From a virus: DNA of 35,681 bases. Both the position numbers and the translations under genes were made by a program. Numbering within the stretch: the stretch's first letter is position 1; the number at the start of each line of letters is the position of its first letter. A model generated the notes under the pieces. It was given only the letters and a program-made list of their open reading frames with translations. It ran no database searches and had not been told where the DNA came from. Positions 34,454-35,290 of the stretch are shown piece after piece. Where the stretch lies: UHGV virus genome UHGV-1359969, one strand, 5' to 3'.

Positions 34454-35290
34454 CTACCTCCCTGTGAGACTTGGTTTTCCTTCGCGGACCGCTGTGAGTG
34501 TGGTTTCTCTCGTCAGATAGTCGATATCTGCGGTCCATCCCGTATCGCTGTCACCAAAATAAAACGGCTTAGCCAGTTTGACGAAGGCCCGCACATAGGA
34601 CCGCCAGCCGTCGACGTTTGGGGTTGCCAGTTTCGGTATTATTTTCTTCAGGTCACGTTTTCGCTTCTCAGTGACATCGATAGCGTGAGGCAGGCGATCA
34701 CCGACTTCCTCGTTGTAGGCAATGAGATATTCGTCGTAATTGATTTTCACTGCCCGGCGCTTTTTAGGTTTAACCAACCCTTCCGCTTCACCCCCAGCGG
34801 GGGTATGGGGGTTAGTTTCTTTCTTTTCTTTTGTAATAGTTTCTTTTGTGTGTCCCTGTTTTGGTGACAGCGCTGTCACCGTTTTGGTGACACTTTTTGT
34901 CACTGTTTTGGTGACATTGTCACCAGAGTAGTGACACCCTGTTATTTCCCACTCACTCACGTTCTTGTTTGGTCCGATTCTCGGCCCATCCATAACGACT
35001 ACACGCATTGCTATCAGCTCGTTTTTCGCCTTGTTAACTTTCTGCCGTGGCAGGTTTGTAAGCTCACTTAACTGACTGTCAGCAATGCGGTCCGACTTCT
35101 TGCCAAAGCCATAAGTTTTCCGGCAAATAGCGTGTGCCACCTTGGCCTGATTTTTTGTTAAGTCAGCGCCTATCAGGGCCTCATACAGAGCATTTGCAAG
35201 TCTGGTGTACCCATCATCAAGATCTGCCACCGTTGGCCTCTCTTGCCGTCGTGCGGCTCCAAAGTCAGCGTATGCAACGTTACTGTTCAT
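34454..35290 (-). CDS. replication initiation protein (lambda O-like N-terminal domain)
   Basis: N-terminus ...[61 protein letters not shown] closely parallels lambda O (ADLDDGYARLSNMLLEAYSGADLTKRQFKVLLAILRKTYGWNK...DSQLSEITKLP); GGAGG RBS; iterons inside the coding region. Confidence 0.85.
34855..34940. repeat. origin iterons: three to four copies of TTTTGGTGACA with inverted TGTCAC half-sites, next to an AT-rich tract (34801-34850)
   Basis: Direct repeats at 34859, 34882, 34906 plus GTGACA/TGTCAC palindromes, inside the O-like gene where they encode [14 protein letters not shown]. Confidence 0.6.

Follow-up and report, generated by a model that had tools for sequence, protein, structure and literature searches.

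The replication origin of phage lambda (ori-lambda) lies inside the initiator gene O and comprises four 19-bp inverted repeats (iterons), which bind O dimers, together with a 40-bp A+T region that is opened by O on supercoiled DNA (PMC5043065, PMC7466680). Gene 18 of P22 and gene 18 of phage L carry repeats of their own within the gene, and these have been taken as the origins of both phages (PMC8022706). A comparable arrangement was analyzed here in the virus genome UHGV-1359969, a stretch of 35,681 nucleotides that is referred to in full as the window and in which an O-like replication initiator gene occupies positions 34454-35290 of the minus strand. Region 34790-34936 inside this gene very probably serves a lambdoid Morganella morganii prophage as its origin of vegetative (theta-type) replication, with a design similar to that of ori-lambda. 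The argument draws on how the region is built, on homology to ori-lambda, on constraint at the DNA level, on co-variation with the N-terminal domain of the initiator and on placement over a disordered linker, as read from sequences and models. All features by which a lambdoid origin can be recognized from sequence were found, namely the location, an initiator of the O family, an iteron array, an AT-rich tract and a match in specificity between iterons and initiator. As judged from these comparisons, the region belongs to the family of lambdoid origins, its iteron specificity differing from those of lambda, P22, phi80 and L.

The last 2.6 kb of the window carry, on the minus strand, the O-like open reading frame (ORF) of 278 amino acids (aa), a 60-aa ORF overlapping its start and a DnaB-family helicase gene downstream. 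The O-like gene was identified from the ORF list, Pfam, PHROG, sequence identity and an AlphaFold2 model. Its product belongs to the phage O protein family, matching PF04492 Phage_rep_O over aa 21-114 (E = 8e-39, 132.5 bits vs. a Pfam cut-off of 28.7) and PHROG 345, 'replication initiation O-like' (E = 5e-62). Three parts were distinguished: an N-terminal origin-binding domain (N-domain, approximately aa 21-116), a disordered linker (aa 119-180) and a C-terminal domain of the P22 gp18 type (C-domain, aa 181-273). Identity to P22 gp18 amounts to 50% across aa 21-271, and that to lambda O to 61% across aa 16-116. The C-domain of the protein aligns with P22 gp18, not with lambda O. By sequence, the closest full-length relative is the P22 gene 18/gene 12 module rather than the lambda O/P module.

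Four copies of a 19-bp inverted repeat, TGTCAC-N7-GTGACA, are located at 34851-34936 within the O-like gene. The copies span 86 bp, with start-to-start spacings of 23, 24, and 20 bp on the plus strand, and were numbered 1 to 4 in the direction of O (minus strand). Read in that direction, the spacings of 20, 24, and 23 bp correspond to the approximately four 19-bp imperfect inverted repeats, about two helical turns apart, of a lambdoid origin. Iteron 1 (34918-34936; O strand TGTCACTACTCTGGTGACA, plus strand TGTCACCAGAGTAGTGACA) has perfect arms and a center without A-tract. It is followed by iteron 2 (34898-34916; O strand TGTCACCAAAACAGTGACA, plus strand TGTCACTGTTTTGGTGACA) and by iteron 3 (34874-34892; O strand TGTCACCAAAACGGTGACA, plus strand TGTCACCGTTTTGGTGACA), which is the most perfect palindrome of the four. 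Iteron 4 (34851-34869; O strand TGTCACCAAAACAGGGACA, plus strand TGTCCCTGTTTTGGTGACA) adjoins the AT-rich tract and contains one mismatch, located in a degenerate right arm (GGGACA) that reads AGAGTCA in the closest relatives. In its right half, iteron 4 is similar to the corresponding half of lambda iteron 4 (AAAACAGGGGGACA). A central AAAAC, an A-tract of the kind associated with intrinsic bending of iteron DNA in lambdoid origins, is present in iterons 2-4 and absent from iteron 1.

A repeat search grouped the four copies as one family of 19-20 nt. Elsewhere in the window, one further TGTCAC-N7-GTGACA match was found when up to two mismatches were allowed, and shuffles of the whole window gave a mean of 1.48. 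Given this low expectation, four iterons within 86 bp represent a cluster far beyond chance. The original prediction had described three to four direct repeats at this locus, associated with GTGACA/TGTCAC inverted half-sites. The cluster is real, and the 11-mer TTTTGGTGACA occurs in it three times exactly on the plus strand (34859, 34882, and 34906); its shuffles had a mean of 1.02 matches at one mismatch or fewer, and none of 100 reached five. The unit is better described as the 19-bp palindrome in four copies, of which the predicted half-sites form the arms. A further exact copy of TTTTGGTGACA lies outside the cluster on the minus strand (34549-34559; half-site TGTCACCAAAA), 290 bp from the iteron array, in the part of O that encodes the C-domain (peptide FYFGD). 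This half-site is partly kept in the Proteus phage vB_BPM-V3 (TTTTGGTGAAAA) and is probably due to chance or coding. A CRP site (TGTGA-N6-TCACA) was also considered for the iterons and was rejected by inspection, as half-sites and spacing differ.

The iterons start at gene positions 355, 375, 399, and 422 and are read in frames 0, 2, 2, and 1, respectively. The resulting peptides are CHYSGD for iteron 1, VTKTVT for each of iterons 2 and 3, and LSPKQGH for iteron 4. The repetitive VTK linker that the iterons had been proposed to encode does exist (aa 125-139), being derived from iterons 2 and 3 only. Because the copies are palindromic and are read in three frames, giving unrelated peptides, the repeat is a property of the DNA and not of the protein.

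Directly downstream of the last iteron in the direction of O, an asymmetric AT-rich tract of 39 bp extends over 34812-34850 (O strand CACAAAAGAAACTATTACAAAAGAAAAGAAAGAAACTAA) and contains two ACAAAAGA motifs. This is the core of the AT-rich stretch that had been noted beside the repeats; its GC content is 0.23, and purines make up 77% of its O coding strand. Among all 39-nt windows of the stretch, 1.5% are as AT-rich and 0.8% as strand-skewed. The tract is presumed to be the DNA-unwinding element. In a BLAST comparison it was 89.6% identical over 48 nt to the AT-rich region of ori-lambda (J02459, 39107-39152), which lies under the feature 'ori iteron 4' (window ACACAAAAGAAACTATTACAAAAGAAAAG... 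vs. lambda ACACAAAAGACACTATTACAAAAGAAAAA...). The same search also matched 21, 933W, H-19B and many others. Four 'ori iteron' sites are annotated inside O in the lambda record, and the four iterons of the window align with them one-to-one and in register, with the central AAAAC in common. The layout recurs in P22 gene 18, with repeats particular to that gene. The alignment with lambda- and P22-type origins that had been proposed as a check thus bears out an ori-lambda-like origin inside the O-like gene.

The AT-rich tract is closely followed, in the direction of O, by a short GC-rich palindrome, ACCCCC-AGC-GGGGGT (34790-34804), which was recognized from the sequence, the P22 sequence and the alignment. 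It is positioned like CCCCC-TAAA-GGGGG of P22 gene 18 and, more loosely, like the palindrome to the right of ori-lambda. Among 75 distinct loci surveyed after the AT-rich tract, a stem of at least 5 bp was present in 69%, which was not significant compared with shuffles (median P = 0.12). For this reason, membership of the palindrome in the origin is uncertain: it is possible and not established. Short palindromes of unrelated sequence were seen at this position in most C-domain classes (for instance CCCCC..GGGGG, CCCCTC-AC-GAGGGG, GTCCGAA-AGTG-TTCGGAC and GTCATC-TTGC-GATGAC), and they may constitute a feature of the DNA or a by-product of Pro/Gly codons.

Conservation was analyzed in 119 loci gathered from phage records, IMG/VR and species-representative genomes. 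Loss of the repeat from close relatives with a conserved protein had been named as an observation that would speak against an origin. No such loss was seen: at least three TGTCAC-N7-GTGACA sites were present in each of the 76 loci whose N-domain shared 72% identity or more with that of the window. Such sites were also found in 8 of the 10 loci with 65-72% identity and in none of the 24 loci with 55-65% identity. At the same position, these 24 loci carried TTAGC-N7-GCTAA, lambda-type ATCCCTC...GAGGGAT or TGTCTC-N7-GAGACA instead, and still more distant N-domains were accompanied by P22-type iterons (approximately 50% N-domain identity) or phi80-type iterons. Beyond the close relatives, the iteron class therefore changes with the N-domain, and iterons and initiator N-domains are matched as expected for replicon specificity, the evidence being correlative. 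The ACAAAAGA tract was retained in 23 of the 24 loci with other iteron classes; nearly universal, it may be a sequence-specific element common to all classes, with a role beyond easy melting.

In a first conservation analysis, loci were selected by iteron pattern. The six-base iteron arms were invariant among these relatives and the central 7 nt varied, a result that is partly circular for the arms. The analysis was repeated with loci selected by N-domain identity alone (at least 72%), giving 33 distinct sequences, to which the following entropy figures apply. Entropy at third codon positions was 1.19 bits in the N-domain (codons 21-118), 0.37 bits in the iterons and 0.15 bits at the start of the AT-rich tract (Mann-Whitney P = 8e-10 and 8e-6). 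Approximately 80 nt covering iterons 3 and 4 and the AT-rich tract were almost invariant in an alignment of the window with five phages, including Proteus phage vB_BPM-V3, Sf101, mEp043 and PhiR12_1, the O coding DNA of these phages being otherwise 75-79% identical to that of the window. Iteron 3 was unchanged throughout this alignment except for two center bases in the Proteus phage. Past the AT-rich tract the similarity stopped abruptly.

Expanded or interrupted iteron arrays were present in three relatives. Locus L108, from an Arsenophonus endosymbiont, has at least six copies of the TGTCAC type; in L084, iterons 1 and 2 are separated by an insertion; the third is L117, from Serratia symbiotica. 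Expanded arrays such as that of L108 recall the six-iteron origins of Stx phages (PMC7466680). At approximately 2960-3160 of L118 (Pantoea sp. BRM17), the O-like N-domain is broken off directly past the first iteron and is followed by the apparent start of a second O gene. This may represent a rearranged or tandem replication region.

Residues that are fixed in the TGTCAC class and differ in other classes cluster at aa 81-86. At these positions the TGTCAC class has PRQKVN, the TTAGC class HHTHVC, the lambda class PVKRCN, the P22 class APTKCS and the TGTCTC class (L081) SRQNVN. Sequence comparison thus points to aa 81-86 as specificity determinants. Two relatives with neighboring specificities were observed, both on IMG/VR contigs. 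L081 combines TGTCTC-N7-GAGACA with SRQNVN and differs from the window class in a single base of each arm and in two residues of the helix, and L073, with an N-domain 71% identical, combines iterons of the TGTTACC...GGTAACA type with SRPKAN. Both appear to form natural specificity-swap pairs with the window class.

A structure was predicted with AlphaFold2 from the 33-sequence alignment. The N-domain was modeled confidently, with helices spanning 30-41, 46-60, 71-78, and 82-94 plus a beta hairpin (98-107). Helix 82-94 (encoded by 35009-35047, minus strand) is the predicted recognition helix of a winged helix-turn-helix, with a predicted local distance difference test score (pLDDT) of 88-92. 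A Foldseek comparison with the PDB gave weak matches (E = 0.13 or worse), all of them winged-helix regulators such as MarR and CRP, and a PDB sequence search with the O-like protein gave no match. With weak fold matches and no solved structure found by sequence, a winged helix-turn-helix with the recognition helix starting at aa 82 is plausible and not strongly established. Residues 119-180, which are encoded by the iterons, the AT-rich tract and the palindrome, have a pLDDT below 50 and separate two confidently folded domains, the C-domain (aa 181-273) being helical in the model. The iterons correspond to aa 119-147 of 278 and the AT-rich tract to aa 147-160, both between the parts of the gene that encode the N- and C-domains.

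Topical literature searches covered the lambda, Stx, and P22/L origins and returned nothing on a TGTCAC iteron class. The exact iteron strings gave only unrelated primer matches in the searchable full-text literature, the older papers on phage 82 and phi80 being outside its coverage. The chances are about even that TGTCAC-N7-GTGACA iterons and the PRQKVN helix motif together define a distinct class of origin specificity among lambdoid replicons that has not been described so far.

The gene directly downstream of O (33084-34449, minus strand) encodes a DnaB-like replicative helicase of the P22 gene 12 type (Pfam DnaB_C, E = 8.5e-77; DnaB N-terminal domain, E = 3e-12; PHROG 19). The listed ORF of 484 aa (33084-34538) overlaps the end of O by 85 nt and is probably over-extended at its 5′ end. 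This start was rejected, as in four contigs with an identical O the start is called just past the O stop, giving 454-455 aa. A GTG near 34449, preceded by GGGAGG, is favored. The helicase is the presumed partner recruited by the C-domain of O. A gp18-type C-domain that is directly followed by a DnaB-family helicase of the phage, in the absence of a lambda P-type loader, corresponds to a P22-type module.

The N-domain and iterons of the TGTCAC class are joined to three different downstream arrangements. In the window and in the Proteus phage, they are followed by a P22-gp18-type C-domain and then the DnaB-like helicase; in Sf101 and mEp043, by a different C-domain and then an ES18 gp61-like protein; and in PhiR12_1, by a lambda-type C-domain and then lambda P. 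The AT-rich tract is the junction at which N-domain/iteron modules and C-domain/partner modules were reassorted. In O proteins, the N-terminus recognizes the origin and the C-terminus recruits the partner. A module boundary at the AT-rich tract fits this division of labor. The comparison suggests that the shared tract also acts as a recombination joint, in addition to its role in the origin.

The following mechanism is proposed. In line with the lambda and P22 paradigm, the O-like winged-helix N-domain would bind as a dimer to each of the dyad-symmetric 19-bp iterons. The resulting nucleoprotein complex, formed on supercoiled DNA, would melt the 39-bp AT-rich tract, as its homology to the lambda unwinding region suggests. 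The P22-gp18-type C-domain would then recruit the phage's own DnaB-like helicase, encoded directly downstream, after which host primase and polymerase would take over. In this arrangement the origin DNA encodes the disordered inter-domain linker, which is likely to tolerate the sequence constraints of cis elements.

Several points weigh against assignment of 34790-34936 as an active origin. The role of the TGTCAC class as an origin is deduced from sequence comparison and predicted structure. The structure model is moderately confident overall (mean pLDDT 64, predicted template modeling score 0.37), with fold matches at E of 0.13 or above. The right arm of iteron 4 is degenerate and iteron 1 is without the central A-tract. 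The entropy comparison ignores phylogeny, and part of the synonymous conservation could be explained not by purifying selection but by a shared segment that recently spread horizontally at a recombination joint. Finally, the prophage could be defective, its origin intact yet unused.

The last point was considered as an explanation in its own right, namely that a correctly built origin is no longer used in a prophage that has become a decaying remnant. In favor of decay, the data give no sign of inducibility, and the boundary of the window falls shortly upstream of the replication genes, with the immunity region beyond it. Against decay, the O and helicase ORFs and all four iterons are intact, and the rest of the window is filled by structural and lysis genes. 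The identical O protein is present on five contigs, and copies 94-99% identical occur in several M. morganii assemblies. In addition, the upstream region with cI-like and cro-like genes is intact on contig L121. Decay is considered improbable, though it is the strongest of the alternatives.

A lower probability was assigned to the conserved block being mainly a recombination linker for lambdoid module exchange, with conservation resulting from repeated exchange and not from origin function. The abrupt end of homology past the AT-rich tract, the joining of one N-domain/iteron set to three C-domains and the presence of the tract in phages of different iteron classes and hosts are all in agreement with such a linker. 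It leaves the four palindromic iterons and their co-variation with the N-domain unexplained, and the AT-rich tract corresponds to the experimentally defined unwinding region of lambda (PMC5043065, PMC7466680). A linker role is moreover compatible with origin function and is probably additional to it. It is equally unlikely that the palindromes are operators for O or another DNA-binding protein, acting in the control of transcription or translation, for example by autoregulation or as a roadblock in the early right operon, and not an origin. Dyad-symmetric 19-bp sites are typical of operators, and hairpins could form in the mRNA, the palindromes being detected by a terminator scan. The sites nevertheless adjoin a tract homologous to the proven ori-lambda unwinding region, in a homologous gene and at a homologous position; an array of four sites at about two helical turns matches the architecture of the O-some (PMC5043065); and only the N-domain of O co-varies with the sites, no regulator gene doing so. 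Least credible of all is that the repeats are a by-product of a low-complexity protein linker (VTKxVTK) grown by slippage, with no cis role in DNA. In its favor, the region does encode a repetitive, predicted-disordered linker with VTKTVT in two iterons. Against it, four copies in three frames yield three unrelated peptides, and each copy is palindromic, although a repeat in the protein would need no palindrome. In addition, conservation at synonymous sites far exceeds that in the folded N-domain, and the arm sequences change together with the N-domain recognition helix.

Upstream of O, a likely oop-type antisense RNA was located on the plus strand (35419-35535), based on a promoter-like site and an intrinsic terminator. 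The promoter-like site, TGCACA-16-TATGAT, lies at 35419-35446 and the terminator at 35505-35526, followed by TTTTT. The predicted RNA is approximately 80 nt long (fold -20.8 kcal/mol, z = -2.9), and its terminator (CTCGGTTGCAGCCGGGGCTTTTT) is closely similar to the lambda oop terminator (CTCGGTTGCCGCCGGGCGTTTTTT). The same promoter and terminator scan recovered p_o and t_o in lambda. No equivalent of the terminator was found in a terminator scan of Proteus phage vB_BPM-V3. An Rfam scan of the whole window returned one tRNA only, and no RNA family at the origin or the oop-like locus. This tRNA-Met (anticodon CAT; 27738-27809, minus strand) is located inside the prophage among late and accessory genes.

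The 60-aa ORF (35280-35462, minus strand) overlaps the start of O by 11 nt and gave no match in Pfam or PHROG. It is called as a gene in three contigs and holds the position of P22 ORF48 and of the 48-aa ORFs in mEp043 and Sf101. At 35536-35681 (minus strand), the C-terminal end (...AEKYGQKPSAGTKKKAKASRQVSMF*) of a gene running off the window was found. Its counterpart on L121 is a 110-aa protein that lies between a cro-like gene and O and has no Pfam match. The gene is probably a cII analogue.

Regarding distribution, proteins 94-99% identical to the O of the window were found in Morganella morganii assemblies, and Morganella phage IME1369_01 gives matches at 90% to parts of the window. On contig JAUPWO010000008.1, an identical O protein is encoded downstream of cI-like and cro-like genes. 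Among 5426 complete E. coli genomes, 176 (approximately 3%) contained the N-domain and iteron module at approximately 80% identity. The module was also found in Proteus, Providencia, Xenorhabdus, Photorhabdus, Arsenophonus, Pantoea, Citrobacter, and others.

This assignment locates the origin of a Morganella prophage. As regards annotation, it is also the first to place the origins of several sequenced coliphages and Shigella, Salmonella, and Proteus phages of this iteron class. A comparative series is obtained that clearly shows the exchange of origin-recognition and helicase-recruitment modules at the AT-rich tract. If the class is indeed separate, the TGTCAC class and its neighbors would form a natural series for reading the recognition code between O proteins and iterons. 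Possible uses include annotation, prediction of replicon incompatibility among co-resident prophages and the design of specificity swaps. The general picture of lambdoid phage replication is unchanged, the arrangement being the textbook one with a different initiator-binding sequence.

Among the described systems, ori-lambda, a type that also occurs in 21 and in 933W and other Stx phages, shares with the window an origin placed in the O gene at the junction of N- and C-domain, the nearly identical AT-rich tract (approximately 90%), the related N-domain and an oop-like RNA upstream. The window differs from lambda in the iteron arms (TGTCAC/GTGACA vs. ATCCCTC/GAGGGAT) and in the beginning of the recognition helix (PRQKVN vs. 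PVKRCN). Its C-domain is unrelated to that of lambda O, its partner is a DnaB-like helicase whereas lambda uses the loader P, and a short GC palindrome takes the place of the longer lambda palindrome to the right of the AT-rich tract.

The P22 gene 18/gene 12 region is similar to the window in whole-protein architecture, C-domain and gene order with a DnaB-type helicase. P22 gene 18 likewise contains four repeats of approximately 20 bp, followed by a ACACAAAAGA AT-rich tract and the CCCCC-TAAA-GGGGG palindrome. It differs in its iterons, which are of the TCGGTAAAAC/TTTACCGA type, in the recognition helix (APTKCS) and in an N-domain that is approximately 50% identical to that of the window. Since iterons and recognition helix differ, the window and P22 are expected to be distinct in origin specificity. 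In phi80, the gp15 sites annotated in gene 15 of the genome record have a different sequence again.

The inspected stretches of four records of the TGTCAC class (vB_BPM-V3, Sf101, mEp043 c-1, and PhiR12_1) carry no annotation of an origin or of iterons. The same four-copy iteron class and AT-rich tract are present in mEp043, Sf101, SEN22, vB_EcoP-720R6, PhiR12_1-5, and Proteus vB_BPM-V3, with N-domains 73-82% identical to that of the window and a core of 80 nt that hardly varies. Among the phages of this class that were compared, the Proteus phage alone shares the helicase-type module with the window. In plasmid origins of the RepA, pi, and TrfA type, a winged-helix initiator is likewise combined with a replicon-specific array of initiator sites that adjoins an AT-rich region of unwinding (PMC5043065). 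The iterons of plasmids are monomer-bound direct repeats located outside the initiator gene, whereas the sites in the window are palindromic and suited to a dimer.

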